Positions 4,631-14,112 are shown, numbered from the stretch's first letter. The stretch: 14,112 nt of DNA from Pseudomonadota bacterium (GCA_043813155.1 JBDRLK010000004.1:1-14112); one strand, 5' to 3'. The notes: a model not told the origin generated them from the sequence alone. Translations and numbers: made by a program.

Positions 4631-6973
4631 TCAAACGAAAATGTTGGCGTCGCCCTTGGACAGGACGATGACGGTAGTCGGGAGCGACTTGAACACGTCG
4701 TGCATGTCGTGCAGGTAGGCGGCGAAATTCAGGGCGTTGCTCTCGGACATGCCGACGAAAACGAGGTCGGCCCGGGCCGACATCCGTTTCATGATCTCGC
4801 GCGGCGGGTCGCAGGACGCGATGACGTCCACGGCCATGGACAGCCTGGCTTTTTTAAGCATGAGCTTGAGGAGGCTGCTTTCCTTTCCGGCGTCCTCGTC
4901 ATCGCCAACGATCCTCAGGAGCCGGACCATGGCCCCCTGCCATGCCCGGTTCAATGTCATGAGGTAGGCGAAGAGGGCCATGAGAGAGCCGTTCCTCTCG
5001 CCCCTCCACCAGACGTCGATGATCCTCTTTCGCCGCTTCCCCTTGACGAAATCCCCCGGTTTCAGGATGGCCAGGTTCAGGCCGTGCGCCCACATGAGGT
5101 GCACCTGCCGGGCCAGCTGCGCCCTCTCCCCCGGGTCGGCGCCCGGCGGTATGGCGATCATGCCCGTGTTCGGCCGCAGGGGGCCGAGGGAATAGCACTG
5201 CAGGAACGATGAAAACGTCTCGAGATAATCGCTGCCCACGACGGCCTCGCCGTAGGCCTGGATCCCCTGGGCGGCCAGGAAATTTTTAAGCTCCCCCAGC
5301 CTGGCCCTGCGCATCTCGAGCCGCTCGCCCTGGTCCATGCCGGGCTCGGCCGAGATGTCCGCGACCGAAAGGAGGCCCCTGCGGCCCTCGATCAGGGCCG
5401 CTATGGTCACGAGCTGAAGCTCGCTCGTCGGGTTGTCGGCCACGGCCGTGAGGATGGGCCGCCAGTTTTTCGGGTGAACGGGCGTGTCGCCCAGAACGAG
5501 CAGGTTGTCCCTTATCTTTGAAAACACGTACCCGCGCTTCGCGTCGCCCCACTCGGTCTTGATGTTCTTGCGCGTCAGGTACATCCAGATCGCGCCCGTG
5601 ACGGCCATGGCGATGAGGGCCGCTGTCTCATTGATCTTGATCATGGCCACGACGCAGCCCACCGTGCCCGTGATCGAGGTGAACTTGTTGGACCACTTGA
5701 ACCCTGGACGGAAGGAGGGGTTTGCGCTGACCGACTCCACGAAAGCGGAAAGGTTGATCATGCCGTAGGCGATGAGGAAAAACATGGAGATGACCTCGGC
5801 CACGGCGTTCAGGTCGCCCGCCCAGATGATGCAGGCCGCCAGGATGAACGTGGCCACCGTGGCGCGGCGCGGCTCGTTGTCCACGCCGTGCCCCTTGGCG
5901 AAAAAATTGAGAAAGCCAAGCAGGCGGTCCCGGGCCATGGACTGGAGGATGCGCGGCGCGCCCAGGAAGCTTCCCAGGGCCGAGGAAAGCGTTGCCGTGA
6001 ACACGCCCAGGATCACGAGCGGGCCGAAGAGGCTCATCTGCTGCAGCGCGCCGAAGGGATCCGCGATGAGGGCCTTCCTGCCGACCGAGCCGGCCATGAG
6101 CCAGATCTGCAGAAGATAGATCGCGGCGGTGAAGGCCACGGCGAAAATAGTGCCCAGGGGTATGGCGCGGCTGGGGTTCTTCAGGTCCCCCGACATGTTG
6201 GCGCCCGCCGTGATGCCGGTCACGGCCGGGAAGAAAATCGCGAAGACCGCCCAGAAGGACATGTCCTTTGTAAAGGCGCTGCCCTTGTTCGCCTCGAGAA
6301 TGGCCTCGTCATAGCTGAGAAACCCTCCGACGATGAAGCTGAGGATGGAGATCACCAGGATGGCGAGAACGATGTACTGGGCCTTGATGGCGATGCCCGC
6401 GCCCTTGAAGGTCAGGACGAACAGGCCGAAGACGACCAGGGTCGAAAGGACCTGCGCCGCGTGCAGCGTCTGCCACAGGGCCCACAGGTCCACGTCGAAA
6501 AACGTGTAGGCCTTGAGAAGCGGGGCGACGATGCTCTCCAGCGCCTCGGTAAACCCGATGACGTAGAACGCCACGCCCACCGCCTGGGCCAGGAAAAGCG
6601 TGATGCCGATGGACCCGCCGAAGTTCAGGCCCAGGACCCTGGAAATCATGAAGTAGACGCCGCCGACCTTGACGTCCGTGTTCGTGGCAATGGTGGATAT
6701 GGAAAAGCTCGTGAGGATCGTGATCATCTTGCTGATGCCCAGGATGACCAGGGCCAGCCACAGGCCGCTCTCGCCCACGACGAACCCCGTGCGCATGAAC
6801 ATGATCACGCCCAGGATCGTCAGCACGCTGGGCGTGAAAACGCCCCCGAAGGTCCCGAACCTTCCCCTGGTCTCCTCCTCCTCGTCCGGGAGTTCGTCCA
6901 GGGAGGTCCTTACCCTGCATTCCCTTTCGCTTTCATCCCGGTCCGGCTGACCATTGTGTTCATTCCCGCTCAT
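4631..6973 (-). CDS. Cation-chloride cotransporter (SLC12/CCC family, APC superfamily) homologue with 12-TM permease core and full SLC12-type C-terminal cytoplasmic domain
   Basis: N-terminus: MSGNEHNGQPDRDE.... TM1 region: FGTFGGVFTPSVLTILGVIMFMRTGFVVGESG (SLC12 signature GTxxGVFxP...NIxGVxxFxR). C-terminal domain: ...HPKNWRPILTAV... (compare KNWRPQLLVL), ...IDVWWRGERNGSLMALFAYLM... (compare IDVWWIVHDGG) and ...TVIVLSKGDANIFV (compare VLLVRGGG.EV). The start was chosen at ATG 6973, preceded by GGAAG; the 1117-aa six-frame ORF is an upstream artefact with no stop. Confidence 0.9.
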   Translation of the reverse strand: MSGNEHNGQPDRDESERECRVRTSLDELPDEEEETRGRFGTFGGVFTPSVLTILGVIMFMRTGFVVGESGLWLALVILGISKMITILTSFSISTIATNTDVKVGGVYFMISRVLGLNFGGSIGITLFLAQAVGVAFYVIGFTEALESIVAPLLKAYTFFDVDLWALWQTLHAAQVLSTLVVFGLFVLTFKGAGIAIKAQYIVLAILVISILSFIVGGFLSYDEAILEANKGSAFTKDMSFWAVFAIFFPAVTGITAGANMSGDLKNPSRAIPLGTIFAVAFTAAIYLLQIWLMAGSVGRKALIADPFGALQQMSLFGPLVILGVFTATLSSALGSFLGAPRILQSMARDRLLGFLNFFAKGHGVDNEPRRATVATFILAACIIWAGDLNAVAEVISMFFLIAYGMINLSAFVESVSANPSFRPGFKWSNKFTSITGTVGCVVAMIKINETAALIAMAVTGAIWMYLTRKNIKTEWGDAKRGYVFSKIRDNLLVLGDTPVHPKNWRPILTAVADNPTSELQLVTIAALIEGRRGLLSVADISAEPGMDQGERLEMRRARLGELKNFLAAQGIQAYGEAVVGSDYLETFSSFLQCYSLGPLRPNTGMIAIPPGADPGERAQLARQVHLMWAHGLNLAILKPGDFVKGKRRKRIIDVWWRGERNGSLMALFAYLMTLNRAWQGAMVRLLRIVGDDEDAGKESSLLKLMLKKARLSMAVDVIASCDPPREIMKRMSARADLVFVGMSESNALNFAAYLHDMHDVFKSLPTTVIVLSKGDANIFV

Positions 6974-7090
6974 GCCTGCTTCCAACGTGGCGCAAATATT
7001 GTATAAACAAAATTCAAGGGCAAAAAAAGGGGTAGGCGAAAAAAATTTACCTCTTGCACTCTTCACGTAAAAGTGCCATGAATTTTCAGG
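6974..7090. promoter_or_regulatory. AT-rich divergent intergenic region between the CCC transporter (-) and the hdrA-like cluster (+); presumably carries both promoters.
   Basis: The region reads ...ttgtataaacaaaattcaagggcaaaaaaaggggtaggcgaaaaaaatttacctcttgcactcttcacgtaaaagtgcc. A candidate -35/-10 pair, TTTACC-16-TAAAAG, lies just upstream of ATG 7091, implying a very short leader and no clear SD. Confidence 0.3.
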
Positions 7091-7978
7091 ATGGGTCCGC
7101 ACGAAAACCACGACAAGGCCGGGAAAACTTTCCGGCCCGCCATTGGCGTCTACGTGTGCCACTGCGGCCAGAATATCGCCTCCAGGGTCGACATCGGGGC
7201 GGTCGTTTCCTTTGCGGCCGGGCTCCCGTCCGTCAGCGCCTCCCGTGAGTACAAGTTCATGTGCTCGGACCCCGGCCAGAACCTGATCAAGGAAGACTTG
7301 AGGAGCGGGCTTGTCAACAGGGTGCTCGTGGCATCCTGCACACCGCTCATGCACGAGACAACGTTCAGGAAAGCGGGTGAGGACGGCGGCATCAATCCGT
7401 TCCTGGTCCAGATGGCGAACATCAGGGAGCACGTCTCCTGGGTCACGGACGACACGGACAAGGCCACCCTCAAGGCCAAGGCCCTGATTTCCGCGGGCGT
7501 TGCCAGGCTCAGGCGGCACGTCCCCCTGGAAAGAAGAAGGCTGCCCGTGCGCCAGGAAGTCGTGATCATCGGCGCCGGCGTGGCCGGCCTGTCCGCGGCC
7601 CTGGCCATAGCCGAGGCGGGGAAAAAAGTCTTCCTCGTCGAAAAGGAGCCCTCCATCGGCGGCCACATGGGATATTTCGACAAGACGTTCCCCACGCTCG
7701 ACTGCGCGGCCTGCACCCTGACGCCGAGAATGGTCAGGGCGGGAAGCCATCCGAACATTGAAATCCTGTCCATGAGCGAAGTGACCGGAATTTCCGGAAG
7801 AACGGGGGACTACACGCTGAAGCTGAAAAAAAGGCCAAGGTATATCGACGAAGAAAAATGCAACGGCTGCGGCGCGTGCTGGAGCAGCTGCCCCGCGGTC
7901 AGGGTGCCTGCCCGCCGGGTCATAACGATCGGCGGAAAGCCAATAGGTGAATCGACGATCGAGCGAACCTGCAAATGA
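7091..7978 (+). CDS. hdrA: HdrA-like heterodisulfide-reductase subunit A, N-terminal portion. It holds the N-terminal Cys-cluster domain, the first half of the FAD/thioredoxin-reductase-like domain, and the first CxxCxxCxxxCP motif of the inserted ferredoxin domain.
   Basis: Motifs follow the order of a canonical HdrA N-terminal half: IGVYVCHCGQNIA...YKFMCSDPGQNLI...VLVASCTPLMHETTFRK...NPFLVQMANIREHVSW (N-domain); VVIIGAGVAGLSAALAIAEAGKKVFLVEKEPSIGGHM (FAD Rossmann); TFPTLDCAACTLTPRM; YIDEEKCNGCGACWSSCP. The gene ends in TGA overlapping the next ATG (ATGA). Confidence 0.85.
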   Translation: MGPHENHDKAGKTFRPAIGVYVCHCGQNIASRVDIGAVVSFAAGLPSVSASREYKFMCSDPGQNLIKEDLRSGLVNRVLVASCTPLMHETTFRKAGEDGGINPFLVQMANIREHVSWVTDDTDKATLKAKALISAGVARLRRHVPLERRRLPVRQEVVIIGAGVAGLSAALAIAEAGKKVFLVEKEPSIGGHMGYFDKTFPTLDCAACTLTPRMVRAGSHPNIEILSMSEVTGISGRTGDYTLKLKKRPRYIDEEKCNGCGACWSSCPAVRVPARRVITIGGKPIGESTIERTCK

Positions 7979-9747
7979 GCGCAACGGTTGACATAGTTGA
8001 CATAGAGGTGGGCGGCAGGGCCATCGCCGCGCCCGAGGGCGCGATGCTGCTGCCCGTGCTCCTGAAAGAGGGCTTCGATGTTCCCCACCTGTGCTTCCAT
8101 GAAAAGCTCAAGCCCTATGCGGCCTGCCGCCTCTGTCTCGTGGAGGTCGAAAAAGGCGGCCGCAGGAAGATCGCCACGTCGTGCAACCATCCCGTCATGG
8201 CCGGGCTCAAGGTTTTCCTGGACACGGACGAAATCCTGGAGCAGCGTAAAAATCTTCTCGAGACCATGCTCGCCCAGGCGCCGGACTCGGAGCAGGTCCG
8301 CCGCTATGCCGCGCGCTACGGCGTGCATGACACGGCGCTGAAAAAACAGGAAGGCAAGTGCATCATGTGCGGCCTGTGCGTCAGGGCCTGCGAGGAAATC
8401 GCGGGCGCCCATGCCATCACGCTCGCCGGGCGGGGCAACTTCAAGACGGTCGATTCCCCCTACGGCGATGTCACGCCCCGATGCATTGCCTGCGCCGCGT
8501 GCGCAACCGTCTGCCCCACGGGCCACATCGAGGTGCGCGACGCAAGGGGAAGGGCCGTTGCGCACGACGAGCTCGTCGTGGGCCCGCAATCGGCCGTGTT
8601 CACACCCACGCGCCAGTCCGTGCCGGCCGTGGCCGTCATCGACCCTGAAAGCTGCATCCACATGCTCACTGGCGGATGCGGGATCTGCCGCGACGCCTGC
8701 GAGCGGGAGGCCATAGATTTCGACCAGAAGGAAGAGACCTCCGAGCTGAAAGCCGGCGCGGTCATCGTGGCCACGGGCTTCGAGCCGTTCGACCCCTCCG
8801 GGCTGCCGCAGTTCGGCTACGGGGTTTTCAACAACGTCATCACCGCGCCGCAGGTGGAAAAGATGTCCAACGCGTCGGGCCCCACGGACGGAAAGATCCT
8901 CACGGCCGAGGGACGCAGTCCCGGGAGCGTGGCCATTGTCCATTGCATCGGTTCGCGGGACAAGAACACGAACGAGCACTGCAGCAAGGTCTGCTGCATG
9001 GTCTCGCTGAAGCTGGCCCATCTCATCCACGAGAAAACGGGCGCGTACGTTACGAATTTCTACATCGACATCCGGGCGGGCGGCAAGGGCTACGAGGAGT
9101 TTTATGCAACAGTAGCGGCGCACGGGGTAAGGTTCATCAGGGGAAAGGTCTCCGAGGTGAGGGCGGGAAGCGAGGACGACCCCGAGGAGAGCGGGAAGCT
9201 CGTCGTGGAGGCTGAAGACACGCTCATCTGCAGGCCGGTTCAGCTTCCCGTCGACATGGTCGTGCTCGCGGTCGGGCTCGAAGCGCGCAGGGACGCCGGC
9301 AGCCTGTCCGGCGCCCTGAAAATCGCCAGGAGCAGGGACGGTTTTTTCATGGAGCGGCACATCAAGCTTGCCCCGGCGCACACGCTCGAGGACGGCATTT
9401 TCATCGCCGGCGCGGCCCAGGGGCCCAAGGACATCCCCGAAAGCGTGTCCCACGGAGCGAACGCCGGGCTCGAGGCGCTCAGTCTCCTGGACAGGGGGGA
9501 GATCGAGCTGGAAGCCAGCATCTCGACCATCGACCCTGACTTCTGCACGGGATGCGGCGTTTGCGAGGCCATCTGTCCTGCCGGCGCAATCTGCGTTGAC
9601 GAAAAGAAGAAAATCGCAAGAGTCGACGAAACAGGCTGCAAGGGCTGCGGCCTGTGCGCGGCGGCGTGCCCGGCGCAGGTTGCGGACCAGAGGGGTTTTA
9701 CGGAGCGGCAGATATGGGCGGAAATCGACGGGCTCCTGATAGTGTGA
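7975..9747 (+). CDS. hdrA: Fusion protein: an N-terminal NuoG/HydA/FdhA-like [2Fe-2S]+2x[4Fe-4S] module, followed by the C-terminal portion of HdrA. The HdrA part holds the second cluster motif of the inserted ferredoxin domain, the second half of the FAD domain with the CxGSRD...C..CC cluster, and the C-terminal 2x[4Fe-4S] ferredoxin domain.
   Basis: N-terminal module: MSATVDIVDIEVGGRAIAAPEGAM...HLCFHEKLKPYAACRLCLVEVEKGGRRKIATSC (Cx10CxxCx15C plant-type 2Fe-2S), then CIMCGLCVRAC and CIACAACATVCPTG. HdrA-derived part: ESCIHMLTGGCGICRDACEREAIDFD; AVIVATGFEPFDP; VAIVHCIGSRDKNTNEHCSKVCCM; FYIDIRAGGKGYEEFY; SRDGFFMERHIKL; IFIAGAAQGPKDIPESV; CTGCGVCEAICPAG...CKGCGLCAAACPA. This region matches a canonical HdrA C-terminal half. 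Confidence 0.85.
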   Translation: MSATVDIVDIEVGGRAIAAPEGAMLLPVLLKEGFDVPHLCFHEKLKPYAACRLCLVEVEKGGRRKIATSCNHPVMAGLKVFLDTDEILEQRKNLLETMLAQAPDSEQVRRYAARYGVHDTALKKQEGKCIMCGLCVRACEEIAGAHAITLAGRGNFKTVDSPYGDVTPRCIACAACATVCPTGHIEVRDARGRAVAHDELVVGPQSAVFTPTRQSVPAVAVIDPESCIHMLTGGCGICRDACEREAIDFDQKEETSELKAGAVIVATGFEPFDPSGLPQFGYGVFNNVITAPQVEKMSNASGPTDGKILTAEGRSPGSVAIVHCIGSRDKNTNEHCSKVCCMVSLKLAHLIHEKTGAYVTNFYIDIRAGGKGYEEFYATVAAHGVRFIRGKVSEVRAGSEDDPEESGKLVVEAEDTLICRPVQLPVDMVVLAVGLEARRDAGSLSGALKIARSRDGFFMERHIKLAPAHTLEDGIFIAGAAQGPKDIPESVSHGANAGLEALSLLDRGEIELEASISTIDPDFCTGCGVCEAICPAGAICVDEKKKIARVDETGCKGCGLCAAACPAQVADQRGFTERQIWAEIDGLLIV

Positions 9748-9756
9748 GCAAGCCCT

Positions 9757-10902
9757 ATGACATGGAGCGATGATACAACAATGACCGGCTATAACCTTCC
9801 ATACGACGAATGTGCCGGCGACGGCCTGCGCACCGTGCTCGAGAAGCTTTTCGAGACCGGGGCCGTCTCTGCAGCCATCGTGCCGCTGGAGAGCAGGGGA
9901 AAGACCAGGCTCGATCTCTGCCTCGTCGGCGCTCGCGGCGCGCTCGAGAAGGCCAGGCCGATAGCGCCCTTTTTCTTCGGCAACAGGGCGCTCGGCGTTT
10001 CCAGGCTCACGCGCCTGGGCGAGCTCCCGGAACGGGCCATCGCGATTCTCAGGCCGTGCGAGGCCAGATCGCTCGTCGAGCTCAGGAAGCTCAAGCAGGC
10101 CGCCTCGGACAACCTGATCATTCTCTGCGTGGATTGCGCCGGCACGGTTTCCGCCGCTGATTACAGGGAGAAGATGGCGAGTGGCTCGGGGTTCCACCAG
10201 CAGCTGGCCCATGCCTTTCGCCAGGGACAGGACCTTGAGGGAGCGCGTGAAGCCTGCTCCATCTGCCGGTATCCCGCCCTGGACAATGAAATCGACATCC
10301 ACGCGGGCCTCTTCGGCCAGGAGGGCTGCGTGCTGCTGCTGCCGGTTTCGGAAAAGGGAGCCGGCCTGCTCGGGGGCCTCGGCATGCAGGAGGCCGGGCA
10401 GCCGGAGCTGGATGCGCGAAAGGAGGCCCTGAAAAAAATCAGGGAGCACAGGAAAGCCAGGCAAGGGGAATGGCTTGCCGCCCTGCCCTTTGCTTCGGGG
10501 GGGGCAAAAGCGCTGGCAGCGCATTTCGATTCCTGCGAGCAGTGCCGGGCGTGCTCCGAGACCTGTCCCGTCTGCTACTGCAAGCAGTGCTACTTCAAGA
10601 TGGCGTCCATGGAAACAGAGCCGGCGAACGTGTTTCTCAAGGCGGCGCACCTGGAGAAAGTGCCCCTGCCCTCCTCGCCTCTTTTCTTTCACCTTGGCAG
10701 GATGACGCACATGGCCCACTCGTGCACCGGCTGCGGCGCCTGCACCGAGGCCTGCCCGTCGGGCATCGACGTGGCAAAAGCGTTCATTGCCGCCGCCGGC
10801 GAGGTCCAGAAAACGTTTGACTACGAGCCCGGCAGAAGCACGGACGATAAACTGCCGGTAACGATTTTCAAGGAAGACGAACTGGAGGATGAAGTAAGGT
10901 GA
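9757..10902 (+). CDS. Iron-sulfur flavoprotein: an FrhB/FdhB-family (F420-hydrogenase beta-like) N-terminal domain fused to a C-terminal HdrC/GlpC-like di-[4Fe-4S] domain.
   Basis: N-terminal half, ...GDGLRTVLEKLFETGAVSAAIV...APFFFGNRA...IAILRPCEARSLVELRK...LIILCVDCAG, parallels the FrhB order Q-DGG...EGAVV / KYTFSPN / AIPCQTMGIR / LLVGIYCMENF. C-terminal half: CEQCRACSETCPV and CTGCGACTEACPSG motifs spaced ~54 aa apart, as in HdrC. The start is ambiguous: ATG 9757 has no SD, and ATG 9781 lies 13 nt after GGAG. The stop TGA overlaps the GTG of mvhD. Confidence 0.7.
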   Translation: MTWSDDTTMTGYNLPYDECAGDGLRTVLEKLFETGAVSAAIVPLESRGKTRLDLCLVGARGALEKARPIAPFFFGNRALGVSRLTRLGELPERAIAILRPCEARSLVELRKLKQAASDNLIILCVDCAGTVSAADYREKMASGSGFHQQLAHAFRQGQDLEGAREACSICRYPALDNEIDIHAGLFGQEGCVLLLPVSEKGAGLLGGLGMQEAGQPELDARKEALKKIREHRKARQGEWLAALPFASGGAKALAAHFDSCEQCRACSETCPVCYCKQCYFKMASMETEPANVFLKAAHLEKVPLPSSPLFFHLGRMTHMAHSCTGCGACTEACPSGIDVAKAFIAAAGEVQKTFDYEPGRSTDDKLPVTIFKEDELEDEVR

Positions 10903-11309
10903 CCGAATTCAATCCAAACATCATTGCCTTCCTGTGCAACTGGTGCTCCTACACCGGGGCCGACCTGGCGGGAACCTCGAGGCTCAAGATTCCCGACTCC
11001 ATCAAGGTCGTCAGGGTCATGTGCTCCTCGAGGGTCGACCCGGCGTTCATCATCAAGGCGCTGCAGGAGGGGGCGGACGGGGTCCTGGTCGGGGGATGCC
11101 ACCCCGGCGACTGCCATTACCAGAAGGGAAATTACTATGCGCGAAGGAGAATCGCCGCTTTGAGAAGCATACTGGGAGCCCTGGGCCTCGAGCCGGAGCG
11201 GGTGCGCCTCGAATGGATCTCGGCGTCCGAAGGCCCCCGTTTTTCACAGGTCACGGGCGAGTTCACGGACGCCGTCAGGCGGATGGGGCCCAGCCCCCTG
11301 CGTGTGTAG
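10899..11309 (+). CDS. mvhD: MvhD (methyl-viologen-reducing hydrogenase delta subunit) family electron-transfer protein.
   Basis: Hallmark Cys pattern: IIAFLCNWCSY...VVRVMCSSRVDP...GVLVGGCHPGDCHY. GTG start with GGAGG 9 nt upstream. A 4-bp GTGA overlap with the preceding gene indicates translational coupling. Confidence 0.85.
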   Translation: MTEFNPNIIAFLCNWCSYTGADLAGTSRLKIPDSIKVVRVMCSSRVDPAFIIKALQEGADGVLVGGCHPGDCHYQKGNYYARRRIAALRSILGALGLEPERVRLEWISASEGPRFSQVTGEFTDAVRRMGPSPLRV

Positions 11310-11342
11310 CTGCACGCCCCCGGCGCGCCTGGTCAACATCAT

Positions 11343-13649
11343 ATGAATGACAACACACCATATTTCCCGGCGGTCGTCATAGGCGGCGGCGTGTGCGGCC
11401 TGCGCGCGGCCTTCGACCTGAAGGACCTGGGCGTGCCCTGCCTCGTCATCGAGAAGAGCGACGCGGCGGGCGGAAAGCTCCTGAGGCTCGAGCGATGGTT
11501 CACCGAGGATTCCTGCGGGCTGTGCCGCATCCTTGACAGCGAGAAGCGCCCTCTTCTTCCCCGGGACGAAGATGAAATCCTGTGCCTCCGCCGCAACGTG
11601 GCGCGGCGCGACATCGACCTGTGGACGGGCTCGCGGGTTGTCGGCGTGAGCCGCACCGGCGAAGGGCTCACCCTTCAAATCGAACGTAACGGCAAAGCGG
11701 CGCAGCAGGTCTCATGCGACGCGGCCATCGTTGCCGCGGGCATGGACGATATCGACATGCATTACCTGTCCCACTTGAGGGCGGGCCTGGATCCCGACGT
11801 GGTTTCGGGGGAGCGGTTCGAGGAGATGATCGCGCGCGCCGCGCAAAAACCCCTGCGCAGACCGTCGGACGGCCGCCGGGTTGAAAAAATCGCTTTCATC
11901 GGGTGCGCCGGGAGCAGGGACGCCGCGCACCCGTGGTGCTCCTCCGCCTGCTGCGGCTACCTGGTGAAAGAAATCAGCCTGCTGGCCGGCGTGGACGGGG
12001 GCATCAAGCCCACCCTCTTCTGCATGGACGTCAGGCTCCATGCCAAGGGCATGCACCCGTACGGTGAAAAGGCGCTGAGCCGCACTCGCGTGGTCAGGGC
12101 CAGGGCCGGCAGCCTGGAGAGGAAGCGCAGCGGCATGCTGGCGGTCCGGGCTGTGAGCGATGAAGCGCTGGAGGAAATCGAGGTCGACCTGGCGGTCCTT
12201 TCAGGCGGCGTGAAACCGGGCAGCGCTGATCTCTTTTCCATGCTCGGCGTGAACACGGACCGGCACGGTTTTCCGGCAGCGCAGGCAGCCGTCAATCCCA
12301 CGGTTACATCGAATCCCTCTGTTTTCGTTGCCGGGGCGGCCAAGACGCCGTGCGATATAGCATCCAGCGTAATGGAAGCCAGGGCGGCAGCGGCCGCTGT
12401 TTTTGATCGGCTGGCGGAAATCAAACCGGACATCACCGGCTTTGCGGGCAAGGGCGGAAGGGCGCTTGTCATCGGCGGGGGCGCGGCAGGGCTCGCCGCG
12501 GCAAAGACCCTGGCCGCCGCGGGCCACGAGGTCACTGTCCTGGAAAAGCAGAATGCGGCCGGCGGCATGAGCACGGACATTCGCATCGACCCGGCCGGCA
12601 GGGACGCGGCAGGCCTCATTGAAGCGCTTGCGGCGGAGGTTGCCGCTGATGACAGGGTCCGTATCCTGAGCAACACGGAGGCAATCGCGATCAATGGAAG
12701 GTTGTGTAATTTCAGCGTGTTACATAACAATTCTTCCACTGCACTATCAGGTCATTTCGACACGGTTGTCGTGGCCGCGGGGGCCTCGTTGCACAGGGAC
12801 GAAAGGCTCGATAATGGAAAGATCATCACCCTGAAGCAGATGGAGTCAAAGCTGCATGCCGGCGACGGCGTGGGGGGCGATGTTGTCTTCATTCAGTGCG
12901 CCGGGTCGAGGGACGCCGACCACCCTTACTGCAACGCGGTCTGCTGCCCAAAGGCCCTGGCCCTGGGAATGGAAATACTGAAAAAGGGCCCAAGGGCCTG
13001 GATCCTCTACAGGGACATGATGACCGCGGGCAGGGACGAAGCCCTTTACACCAGGGCGAGAGAGGCGGGAGTCATCTTCGTACGCTACGAGCCGGCACGT
13101 GCGCCGGCCCTCAGCATCGGCGAGGGCGGCGCTGTCCGCGTCGAGGTGGAAGAGACAACACTGGGACGAAAGCTTGTTCTGAGCCCGGAGCTCGTCGTCC
13201 TGTCGTCGGGGATAGATCCTCCGGCCGGGGTTCTCGCGTCCCTGCAGGTCCCGGTCGGCGGCGACGGTTTCGCCGCCGAGGACGACCCGAGATTCAGGCC
13301 GTGCCAGTCGACGAGAAAAGGCATTTACGTGGCCGGCAACGCAAGATACCCGGCAAGCAGCAGCCAGGCCGCGCTCCAGGGTATCTGTGCCGGCATGGGC
13401 GCGTCGATCCTGGGGGGGCTCGCGAGGACGGTGAGCCATGAAGTCGAGCCGTCCCGTACCAGGGAAAAGCTGTGCGCCGCGTGCGCCGTCTGTGTCGACG
13501 CATGCCCGGCAGGGGCCAGGTTCCTGGACAGCGCGATCGAGCCCACGGCACGTGTCGAGGCCCGCCTTTGCCAGGCCTGCGGTCTCTGCGCAGCAGCCTG
13601 CCCTTCCGGCGCCGCCGTCGTCCCGGGAGCACCGCTTCGAGCGCCTTAG
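11343..13649 (+). CDS. Tandem-duplicated HdrA-like flavoprotein: two consecutive FAD/TrxR-like HdrA core domains plus a C-terminal 2x[4Fe-4S] ferredoxin domain. The HdrA N-terminal Cys domain and the inserted ferredoxin domain are absent.
   Basis: Domain 1: AVVIGGGVCGLRAAFDLKDLGVPCLVIEKSDAAGGK ... EDSCGLCRI ... IAFIGCAGSRDAAHPWCSSACCGY ... VFVAGAAKTPCDIASSVMEARAAA. Domain 2: ALVIGGGAAGLAAAKTLAAAGHEVTVLEKQNAAGGM ... VVFIQCAGSRDADHPYCNAVCCPKAL ... IYVAGNARYPASSSQAALQG. C-terminus: CAACAVCVDACPAG ... CQACGLCAAACPSG. Confidence 0.85.
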   Translation: MNDNTPYFPAVVIGGGVCGLRAAFDLKDLGVPCLVIEKSDAAGGKLLRLERWFTEDSCGLCRILDSEKRPLLPRDEDEILCLRRNVARRDIDLWTGSRVVGVSRTGEGLTLQIERNGKAAQQVSCDAAIVAAGMDDIDMHYLSHLRAGLDPDVVSGERFEEMIARAAQKPLRRPSDGRRVEKIAFIGCAGSRDAAHPWCSSACCGYLVKEISLLAGVDGGIKPTLFCMDVRLHAKGMHPYGEKALSRTRVVRARAGSLERKRSGMLAVRAVSDEALEEIEVDLAVLSGGVKPGSADLFSMLGVNTDRHGFPAAQAAVNPTVTSNPSVFVAGAAKTPCDIASSVMEARAAAAAVFDRLAEIKPDITGFAGKGGRALVIGGGAAGLAAAKTLAAAGHEVTVLEKQNAAGGMSTDIRIDPAGRDAAGLIEALAAEVAADDRVRILSNTEAIAINGRLCNFSVLHNNSSTALSGHFDTVVVAAGASLHRDERLDNGKIITLKQMESKLHAGDGVGGDVVFIQCAGSRDADHPYCNAVCCPKALALGMEILKKGPRAWILYRDMMTAGRDEALYTRAREAGVIFVRYEPARAPALSIGEGGAVRVEVEETTLGRKLVLSPELVVLSSGIDPPAGVLASLQVPVGGDGFAAEDDPRFRPCQSTRKGIYVAGNARYPASSSQAALQGICAGMGASILGGLARTVSHEVEPSRTREKLCAACAVCVDACPAGARFLDSAIEPTARVEARLCQACGLCAAACPSGAAVVPGAPLRAP

Positions 13650-13864
13650 GGCGCACTCAACAATAGATTCACATTTCTGGACGCCGATCCATCCCGGCTG
13701 GCTGCGTTGCTGCACCCCGCCACTCGTCGGCGTAGAACGACTACGCCTCCGTCGTGACGGGGACCCCGCGCCTTGCCAGCCGGGCGCCTCGGCGTCCAGA
13801 AAATATCATTGCATGTAATGAGAACATTAGCCCACATTCTGTGAATCTATTGTTGAGTGCGCCC
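13649..13864. mobile_element. MITE-like non-autonomous element (216 bp). It has perfect 25-bp terminal inverted repeats, GGGCGCACTCAACAATAGATTCACA, is flanked by a 3-bp TTA direct duplication, and carries nested internal palindromes.
   Basis: IR-L at 13649-13673 is the exact reverse complement of IR-R at 13840-13864. TTA occurs at 13646-13648 and 13865-13867. Internal inverted repeats: tttctggacgcc (13674-13685) / ggcgtccagaaa (13791-13802), and cccggctggc (13693-13702) / gccagccggg (13775-13784). There is no ORF of meaningful size inside. The element abuts the TAG stop of the hdrA-like gene at 13647-13649. Confidence 0.55.
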
Positions 13865-14112
13865 TTAGTACAACGCCCCGCAAGTTAGGGACCAGCCTTG
13901 TAGCGAGGCCGCGGATGTGGAGCCGGATCGCGAGCGCGCCCGCAGCGCCCGATGGAGGCGTAGCAGGGCTACATCGACGAGGGCGCGAGGACGAAAGCCG
14001 CAAAGTGCACCCCACGGAAGCCATTTCGTCTGGAACGATTTTCCGCTTCCGCAGGGACCCCGCCTCATTGCCCACAGGCGCGGCCGCAGTAGAGTGGTGG
14101 TCCCTGATTTGC

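Follow-up and report, generated by a model that had tools for sequence, protein, structure and literature searches.

A rare bacterial HdrA/MvhD operon with a tandem HdrA-like protein and no HdrBC: a candidate flavin-based electron-bifurcating module

The window analyzed here is the entire 14,112-bp contig of a metagenome-assembled genome (MAG) held at NCBI under the label 'Pseudomonadota bacterium', with ~62% G+C. Open reading frame (ORF) calls confirm the five tightly packed, co-directional genes that a first-pass annotation had reported at 7091-13649 (+ strand), all overlapping or closely spaced. By analogy with solved complexes, and with a probability of roughly 0.45, the operon is tentatively read as encoding a soluble, cytoplasmic Hdr-family bifurcating or confurcating complex, which would couple ferredoxin to a non-disulfide partner and route the high-potential branch through the fifth protein, g5. 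Its sequence and conservation indicate an operon that is real, under selection and apparently self-contained. The genes are the following:

g1, 7091-7978, + strand: 295 aa; N-terminal piece of a split HdrA
g2, 7975-9747, + strand: 590 aa; BfuA/NuoG-like module fused to the remainder of HdrA
g3, 9757-10902 (from the first ATG) or 9781-10902 (from the NCBI start), + strand: FdhB/ElpB-type iron-sulfur protein, probably a flavoprotein
g4, 10899-11309, + strand: 136 aa; free-standing MvhD, predicted [2Fe-2S] connector
g5, 11343-13649, + strand: 768 aa; tandem HdrA-like flavoprotein

The g1/g2 junction is an ATGA overlap between genes in different frames, g3 and g4 meet in a GTGA overlap, and 33 bp separate g4 from g5; overlapping start and stop codons of this kind are typical of translational coupling. 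Because g1 and g2 lie in different frames, selenocysteine read-through between them is ruled out, and a frameshift at this point was likewise rejected, as the split is conserved with differing junctions. The NCBI annotation begins g3 at the ATG at 9781 (373 aa), which has GGAG upstream, and an alternative ATG lies at 9757.

The same five genes, in the same order, at 47-87% identity and with differing flanks, occur in four lineages including the window. The other three are represented by L001 (51-kb contig, proteins 84-92% identical), by L002/L003/L009 (229-kb contig, 44-63%) and by L017 (5.5-kb contig, ~55-60%), and all presumed cofactor ligands are invariant across these orthologues. As judged from the searches made, the operon is rare. 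The g3 subfamily comprises about 10 clusters at >=47% identity, and g5 has 4 close full-length relatives in a word search of 5.8 billion clusters and about 9 colinear tandem relatives among the best 150 matches when 1.84 billion representatives were searched exhaustively. In 185,579 GTDB species genomes, a pattern scan returned no close g3-family relatives, and a metagenome scan with g5 patterns added one locus. In L002 (1891-3351) and L009 (7544-9004), a 486-aa class-I pyridine-nucleotide-disulfide oxidoreductase (Pyr_redox_2 + Pyr_redox_dim) is encoded on the same strand, 130 bp upstream of g1; it probably lies outside the operon core, because the window, L001 and L017 do not have it.

Taken jointly, the motifs of g1 and g2 show a complete HdrA in which no cluster ligand is missing and the flavin adenine dinucleotide (FAD) motif is present. 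In phmmer searches, g1 aligns with HdrA 8RVU_a over residues 10-266 (E 1.4e-86) and with HdrA 5ODC_A over residues 3-263 (E 3e-83); it is 55-60% identical to the HdrAs of 8RVU/7BKB-type complexes and covers positions 2-258 of NCBIfam HdrA2. It carries the ligands of the N-terminal [4Fe-4S] domain (C23, C25, C58, C83), an FAD Rossmann motif (GAGVAG at 161), the equivalents of Cys197 and Cys200 (C205 and C208, within a TFPTxDCxxC segment) and the first CxxCxxCxxxCP of the inserted ferredoxin domain (C257-C267). All of these ligand cysteines are invariant among nine orthologues. The second gene opens with a module at residues 6-195 (nt 7990-8559) that contains a [2Fe-2S] site (C40, C51, C54, C70) and two CxxCxxCxxxC motifs (C129.., C170..), with no His-ligated cluster among them. 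This module matches Pfam Fer2_4 (E 7e-14) and, by phmmer, residues 3-193 of WorA/BfuA 9MQX_A (E 1e-35); WorA is the minimal BfuA subunit of a bifurcating tungsten aldehyde oxidoreductase (PMC12318220). The remainder of g2 (~196-590) corresponds to HdrA2 positions 240-639 (E 1.7e-124) and supplies the second motif of the inserted ferredoxin domain (C227-C242), a thioredoxin-reductase-like domain with CxGSRD..C..CC (C324, C336, C340, C341) and a C-terminal 2x[4Fe-4S] domain (C524.., C555..). Together, the two proteins span HdrA positions 2-639, including FAD site, N-terminal cluster, and inserted and C-terminal ferredoxin domains. The inserted ferredoxin domain has the NuoG-like module between its two half-motifs, and the gene break falls just ahead of that module. 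These domain calls, and those for g4 and g5 below, agree with the split HdrA with NuoG-like insertion, the free MvhD and the tandem HdrA described in the first-pass annotation.

The g1/g2 family extends to more than 120 bacterial clusters that align full-length at 45-50% identity. Its usual setting, seen in L006-L008, is hdrC-hdrB-hdrA(N)-nuoE-nuoF-[BfuA::HdrA(C)]-mvhD-mvhG-mvhA, with the same split, the same module at the same site and then mvhD, at ~50% identity to g1/g2. Such clusters were found in Aminicenantes, Neomarinimicrobiota, Acidobacteriota, Planctomycetota and MAGs labelled 'Pseudomonadota'. Unlike the operon, they encode HdrBC, a [NiFe] hydrogenase and usually NuoEF, and they lack the FdhB-like and tandem HdrA genes. 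Because the same insertion is widespread in bacterial Hdr-Mvh clusters, the 2Fe-2S module is best regarded, on this comparison, as an inherited trait of a bacterial Hdr-Mvh lineage and not as an operon-specific input device. A further relative, L016, has an unsplit 925-aa form of this HdrA in the order hdrC-hdrB-hdrA-mvhD-mvhG-mvhA with no nuoEF nearby, which suggests that the BfuA-like insertion works in HdrA without adjacent nuoEF. The relatives with the BfuA-like module in HdrA (Hdr-Bfu-Mvh) are:

L006, 4208-13673
L007, 158-13734
L008, 1-13639
L016, 6479-13858

In these Hdr-Bfu-Mvh clusters, which occur in several phyla, a BfuABC-type (NuoEFG-like) module is spliced into the inserted ferredoxin domain of HdrA. 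Literature on Hdr/BfuA splicing was found for the Bam benzoyl-CoA reductase only, and not for this hydrogenase-linked form. Two of the clusters (L007 2474-6289, L008 2179-6082) also carry, between hdrA(N) and nuoE, genes for a HydS-like [FeFe]-hydrogenase-domain protein and for DRTGG, HATPase and PHP-domain proteins, a set that looks like a regulatory cassette inside the cluster.

The third protein, g3, had been described as an FrhB-like/HdrC-like hybrid; the present analysis instead finds an ordinary FdhB/ElpB architecture. Pfam gives Fer4 only, with no match to FrhB (PF04422). Over its full length, a family profile built from 40 sequences matches the FdhB/ElpB chain in each of three Hdr super-complexes of known structure, 9T1S_M (5e-56), ElpB 8RVU_E (3e-48) and FdhB 7BKB_E (3e-43). 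The AlphaFold model (AF2; predicted local distance difference test, pLDDT, 87.8; predicted template-modelling score, pTM, 0.88) superposes with a template-modelling (TM) score of 0.74 on FdhB 7BKB_E and 0.71 on ElpB 8RVU_E, ahead of FrhB, Fsr and HCAR. Fifteen family-invariant cysteines fall into four motifs: a core of C93, C119, C159 and C162, CxxCxxCxxxCP at 252, CYCxxC at 265-270 and a second CxxCxxCxxxCP at 315. Profile and model together identify g3 as an FdhB/ElpB-type iron-sulfur subunit, probably a flavoprotein.

At the F420-binding turn, g3 departs from its solved homologues. In FrhB, the F420-contacting turn is 163-IGKGK (PMC3591093), which corresponds to 'EEIDKGKF' in FdhB/ElpB; in g3, a deletion of ~22 residues covers this segment. 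Between the DC.G cysteine and the CxxC, the solved chains have a spacing of 61-62 residues, whereas g3 has 40 and members of its bacterial family have 23-45. With the F420-binding turn missing from g3 and from the bacterial family as a whole, F420, which had been suggested as a donor, is an unlikely substrate. In the helix predicted at residues 12-25, the motif reads C-A-G-D-G-L-R-T, compared with GG(A/V)VT in the FAD-pyrophosphate helix; C11 and G13 are its only invariant positions, and it is not conserved in the wider bacterial family. That wider family, at 34-39% identity, is common in Desulfobacterota, Aerophobetes, Chloroflexi, Latescibacteria and Asgard archaea. Its members may adjoin other Hdr genes, as in Desulfobaculum xiamenense (hdrA-mvhD-fdhB-like-hdrL-hdrC-hdrB) and Desulfonema magnum, where the gene adjoins mvhD and hdrA/hdrL, and 'FdhB' genes beside HdrA/HdrL-MvhD were already recorded in Desulfobacterium autotrophicum in 2009 (PMC2702500).

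The free-standing MvhD, g4, matches Pfam FlpD over its full length (positions 1-123/123, E 9.3e-55) and contains five cysteines (13, 16, 42, 67, 72). In NCBIfam, it matches the MvhD portion at the C-terminus of HdrA2 (E 1e-51) as well as VhuD (E 1e-36). Homology shows g3 and g4 to be counterparts of the FdhB/ElpB-MvhD pair that forms the 'mobile donor arm' in the Fdh-Hdr and Elp-Hdr structures.

The fifth protein, g5, consists of two HdrA-like cores and, at the C-terminus, a 2x[4Fe-4S] ferredoxin domain (701-768); both cores carry GxGxxG as well as the cluster motif CxGSRD...C..CC. Half 1 (1-365) carries an FAD Rossmann motif, the Cys197/200-like pair C58/C61 and the cluster motif C188/C199/C203/C204; half 2 (366-700) carries an FAD Rossmann motif and the cluster motif C519/C530/C534/C535. 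The cluster and Cys197-like cysteines are invariant among five orthologues. In phmmer searches, the halves match HdrA 9SFI_A/5ODC_A as separate stretches, with sHdrA 6TJR also among the matches. Both the N-terminal domain and the inserted ferredoxin domain are absent from g5, and Pfam finds no FlpD domain in it. In the exhaustive search, its C-terminal half aligns with the C-terminal half of double HdrAs of ~1000 aa, and by this alignment g5 is classed as a shortened member of that populated family, archaeal versions of which adjoin mvhGA. A GxGxxG at residue 507, considered as an NAD(P)H site, was rejected because it is not conserved among orthologues.

Fused or tandem HdrAs have been analyzed in anaerobic methanotrophic (ANME) archaea and Moorella, where the first core has the N-terminal cluster domain without Cys197 and the second has Cys197 without the N-terminal domain (PMC9012536). 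In contrast to this complementary pattern, g5 has no N-terminal domain and bears its Cys197-like C58/C61 in the first core. The pattern was also considered as a test for a heterodimer of g1g2 with g5 and is uninformative, as g1 keeps both features in all orthologues. In sulfate reducers, g5-type proteins take the HdrL position beside mvhD and fdhB-like genes. A further HdrA-MvhD arrangement without HdrBC is recognizable by domain content in Dissulfuribacter thermophilus (L015 8001-17907), where genes for a 1022-aa double HdrA, a 204-aa MvhD and a 1372-aa fusion are followed by selB; the fusion combines Fer2_4, GltD-like (Fer4_20/Pyr_redox_2) and molybdopterin formate-dehydrogenase domains.

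The partners expected of a canonical Hdr complex are missing from the operon and its surroundings, as the earlier reading of the window had stated for HdrB and for hydrogenase and formate dehydrogenase catalytic subunits. A six-frame search of the window found no CCG-domain (HdrB) motif, and no ORF matches PF02754. Hydrogenase and molybdopterin domains are absent from the other window ORFs, NiFeSe_Hases and Oxidored_q6 domains from the window and the related five-gene loci, and molybdopterin/FdhA-like or ElpA partner ORFs from the window and related loci. Complex1_51K and 2Fe-2S_thioredx domains (BfuB/BfuC) are present in L006-L008 and absent from the window and its five-gene relatives. The window likewise holds no domains of a FlxA NAD(P)H/FAD ferredoxin-reductase-type subunit or of FlxBC, and no full HdrABC set, while a membrane redox subunit (QmoC/HdrE) and aprAB were found neither in the window nor in the flanks of its relatives. 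PF14691 (Fer4_20), present in HdrL of L004/L005, is not found in g5. Canonical partners just outside the window, the case in which the cluster had been said to be ordinary, were rejected for ~5-10 kb on each side in L001 and L002/L009, where no hdrBC, mvhAG, fdhA or nuoEF occurs.

A mechanism can be proposed from the solved structures, in which electrons pass from FdhB/ElpB through MvhD/ElpC to the HdrA FAD and the inserted ferredoxin domain is the low-potential exit (PMC12350162, PMC9012536). There, the inserted ferredoxin domain receives the low-potential electron via the C-terminal 'shuttle' cluster, and HdrC/HdrB receive the high-potential electron via the CxGSRD-type cluster (PMC12350162). 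By motif count, the five proteins would hold roughly 16 [4Fe-4S] clusters, 2 [2Fe-2S] clusters and 3-4 flavins. Electrons would enter or leave by the iron-sulfur chain of g3, through a non-F420 carrier at a putative flavin site on g3 or a partner at the FdhA/ElpA dock, possibly g5, and the [2Fe-2S] cluster of g4 would pass them to the bifurcating FAD of g1+g2. The low-potential electron would exit by the inserted ferredoxin domain, lengthened by the BfuA-like [2Fe-2S]/2x[4Fe-4S] wire, toward ferredoxin or a NuoEF/BfuBC-type partner encoded elsewhere. The NuoG-like part, previously taken for an input, is a BfuA-type connector within the domain that serves as low-potential exit in solved complexes. 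The high-potential electron would leave by the CxGSRD-type cluster, normally facing HdrC and here directed to g5, whose two flavins would provide a second substrate site. By analogy, g5 is the sole candidate for the HdrBC position, and its specificity to the operon, with the few close full-length relatives noted above, suggests a dedicated replacement partner. Pyridine nucleotide is a possible substrate at g5, given the double HdrA of Moorella, which has two FAD in an NADH-oxidizing complex without another obvious NADH site (PMC5861303). It is doubtful that the five proteins go further and are self-sufficient, free of disulfide chemistry, with g5 replacing HdrBC and the F420-independent g3 acting as donor or adaptor; if true, this would be a new class of HdrA-family reaction, for example ferredoxin/pyridine-nucleotide transhydrogenase-like, or a bifurcase for an unknown substrate.

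Several points weigh against a bifurcating complex that works through g5. HdrA homologues are not always bifurcating, as Qmo and sHdr illustrate. Neither half of g5 contains a classical NAD(P)H motif conserved in orthologues. The subunit contacts are taken from gene order and from homologous complexes, all of which contain HdrBC, and with a contig of 14 kb in view, hdrBC-like, hdrD/dsrK-like or bfuBC genes could sit elsewhere in the genome. Furthermore, because the F420 turn is absent and the GG(A/V)VT motif only partly kept, g3 may be a flavin-free, pure iron-sulfur connector without a substrate site.

The foremost alternative is that the operon encodes an incomplete module, the flavin and donor part of a system that works with CCG proteins (HdrBC, HdrD, or DsrK/TmcB-like) and/or NuoEF/BfuBC from elsewhere, so that its chemistry would be conventional, based on disulfides (e.g., DsrC or some other thiol carrier) and on NAD(H)/ferredoxin. 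In its favor, the nearest of the wider g1/g2 relatives always adjoin hdrC-hdrB and mostly nuoE-nuoF and mvhDGA, the sole known role of BfuA is wiring into BfuBC (PMC9304861, PMC12318220), methanogens need no co-localized genes for hdrABC and its partners (PMC6085437), and the window is merely 14 kb long. However, four lineages retain exactly these five genes and nothing else between differing flanks, g5 is operon-specific, and L016 possesses the BfuA-like insertion with no nuoEF nearby; with this evidence on both sides, an incomplete module is considered somewhat unlikely.

It is unlikely that the complex is a non-bifurcating electron-transfer chain, a linear oxidoreductase of Qmo-like or ferredoxin:NAD(P) type whose HdrA-like flavins would relay electrons between a soluble carrier and either ferredoxin or a partner enzyme. 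The attraction of this reading is that HdrA homologues without HdrBC (QmoAB, sHdrA 6TJR) are not known to bifurcate, that the paired HdrA cores and ferredoxin domain of g5 recall QmoA-QmoB, and that HdrA genes alone are insufficient to infer bifurcation (PMC5861303). Yet g1+g2 retain all features of bifurcating methanogen HdrAs, with the 55-60% identity given above over the N-terminal half, the MvhD and FdhB-type arm is otherwise found in bifurcating complexes, and neither a membrane subunit (QmoC/HdrE) nor aprAB lies nearby.

An artifact, with the split hdrA and odd gene set arising from a frameshift, an assembly error or a degenerating operon, is very improbable and is set aside because the split, the ligands and the gene order are conserved: the contig is indeed short and high in G+C, with many long spurious ORFs tied to this composition, but the split recurs with intact ligands in four lineages and >100 more distant clusters, an assembly error is further rejected by its different junctions, and the cofactor motifs are all invariant in genes joined by overlapping start and stop codons.

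The closest solved systems are ElpABC-HdrABC of Methanothermobacter marburgensis (8RVU) and FdhAB-MvhD-HdrABC(-Fmd) of Methanospirillum hungatei (7BKB), which likewise combine an FdhB/ElpB-type subunit with four [4Fe-4S] motifs, a free MvhD/ElpC and a full HdrA. In contrast to these, the operon lacks ElpA/FdhA, HdrB/HdrC and the F420 turn of g3, and it has a split HdrA with the BfuA-like insertion, an extra tandem HdrA-like protein and a bacterial host. With canonical HdrABC-MvhADG it shares HdrA and MvhD, without HdrB (two CCG domains), HdrC or MvhA/MvhG. In MetFV-HdrABC-MvhD of Moorella thermoacetica and in HdrA3/4 and 5/6 of ANME archaea, two HdrA cores, fused in a single chain or encoded by neighboring genes, are associated with MvhD, and one of them keeps Cys197 without the N-terminal domain. 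Compared with these, g5 is shorter (768 vs ~1000 aa) and has entirely lost the N-terminal and inserted ferredoxin domains, MetFV and HdrBC are missing, and the operon encodes a second, complete HdrA alongside.

Among the sulfate reducers (Desulfobacterium autotrophicum loci VII/VIII, Desulfobaculum xiamenense, Desulfonema magnum), the same FdhB-like family, at 34-36% identity, stands beside mvhD and a large HdrA-type flavoprotein, without FdhA. These clusters have HdrL with a GltD/Fer4_20 NAD(P)H module (D. xiamenense also HdrCB) and an unsplit HdrA free of the BfuA-like insertion; some of the HdrA/MvhD/FdhB-like clusters lack HdrBC. In HdrL itself, a GltD/NfnB-type NAD(P)H module, which g5 lacks, is joined to an HdrA-like core. 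The class II benzoyl-CoA reductase BamBCDEFGHI unites an HdrA-type flavoprotein, an MvhD-like subunit and a BfuA-type connector (PMC9304861), whereas its BfuBC (BamGH), CCG protein and tungsten BamB have no counterpart here. From Bfu (BfuABC), the operon has the BfuA-type connector as a domain only, and BfuB (NuoF-like, with flavin mononucleotide) and BfuC (NuoE-like) are missing. With Flx-Hdr (FlxABCD-HdrABC) it shares only the FlxD/MvhD equivalent, and in Qmo the MvhD domain is fused to QmoB, whereas here MvhD is a separate gene. The named complexes Flx-Hdr, Qmo and HdrL, any of which had been raised as a possible identity, do not fit; identity with Bam, MetFV-Hdr, Hdr-Mvh, Fdh/Elp-Hdr or Bfu was rejected as well, each of the eight differing in at least one defining feature.

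The input and output modules, formerly called unusual, each have a precedent in the Hdr family, with FdhB/ElpB plus MvhD solved in 7BKB and 8RVU. The claim of a new module holds in part: no published account of the exact five-gene combination was found in the literature covered, which did not include the Appel et al. 2021 review, but the parts, and HdrA/MvhD/FdhB-like clusters without HdrBC, are already known. The undescribed part appears to be the exact combination, with a tandem HdrA and no HdrBC, as each module has a published Hdr-family homologue.

Only four scaffolds for flavin-based electron bifurcation are known, including HdrA, whose mechanism has been worked out almost entirely on complexes of methanogens that terminate in HdrBC. 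In bacteria, HdrA/MvhD clusters lacking HdrBC are common and biochemically uncharacterized. The compact five-gene operon could be a tractable expression target for studying what replaces the disulfide branch and what role an FdhB-type arm plays where F420 is unlikely; for a specialist it is plausible and useful in this respect, and no surprise. The abundant bacterial clusters with BfuABC in HdrA may matter more, as they physically join two bifurcation machineries.

No redox genes occur in the remainder of the window, which encodes an SPFH protein and an M23 peptidase, and nothing credible is encoded in the 463 bp between g5 and the window end. Three features border the operon:

4631-6972, - strand: SLC12/amino-acid-permease-type transporter (Pfam), conserved beside the operon in L001
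6973-7090, no strand assigned: 118-bp divergent intergenic region from the transporter to g1, presumed promoter region
13645-13868, + strand: near-perfect hairpin of 224 nt, beginning at the g5 stop codon

Two antisense ORFs, 4631-7984 (- strand, 1117 aa) and 7810-10719 (- strand, 969 aa), were dismissed as high-GC artifacts; of the first, only the 3' ~780 codons (4631-6972) are real. Upstream of g1, the single sigma-54-like match (TGGCGC-N5-TTGTA, 6988-7003) is imperfect, and L001, L002 and L017 do not conserve it; a sigma-54 promoter for the operon was rejected. Genes for sigma-54-dependent response regulators adjoin many related Hdr clusters (L001 11727-13103, L002 13627-15018, L006 2719-4089, L008 16232-17767, L005 5241-6659).

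The hairpin is absent at the corresponding position of L001 and from all related loci compared, and Rfam gave no matches. Its arms of 29 nt are 97% complementary and enclose a nested perfect 14-nt inverted repeat, and the predicted RNA fold reaches -130.5 kcal/mol (z = -12.6). From these properties, it may represent an oversized operon terminator or a miniature inverted-repeat element.

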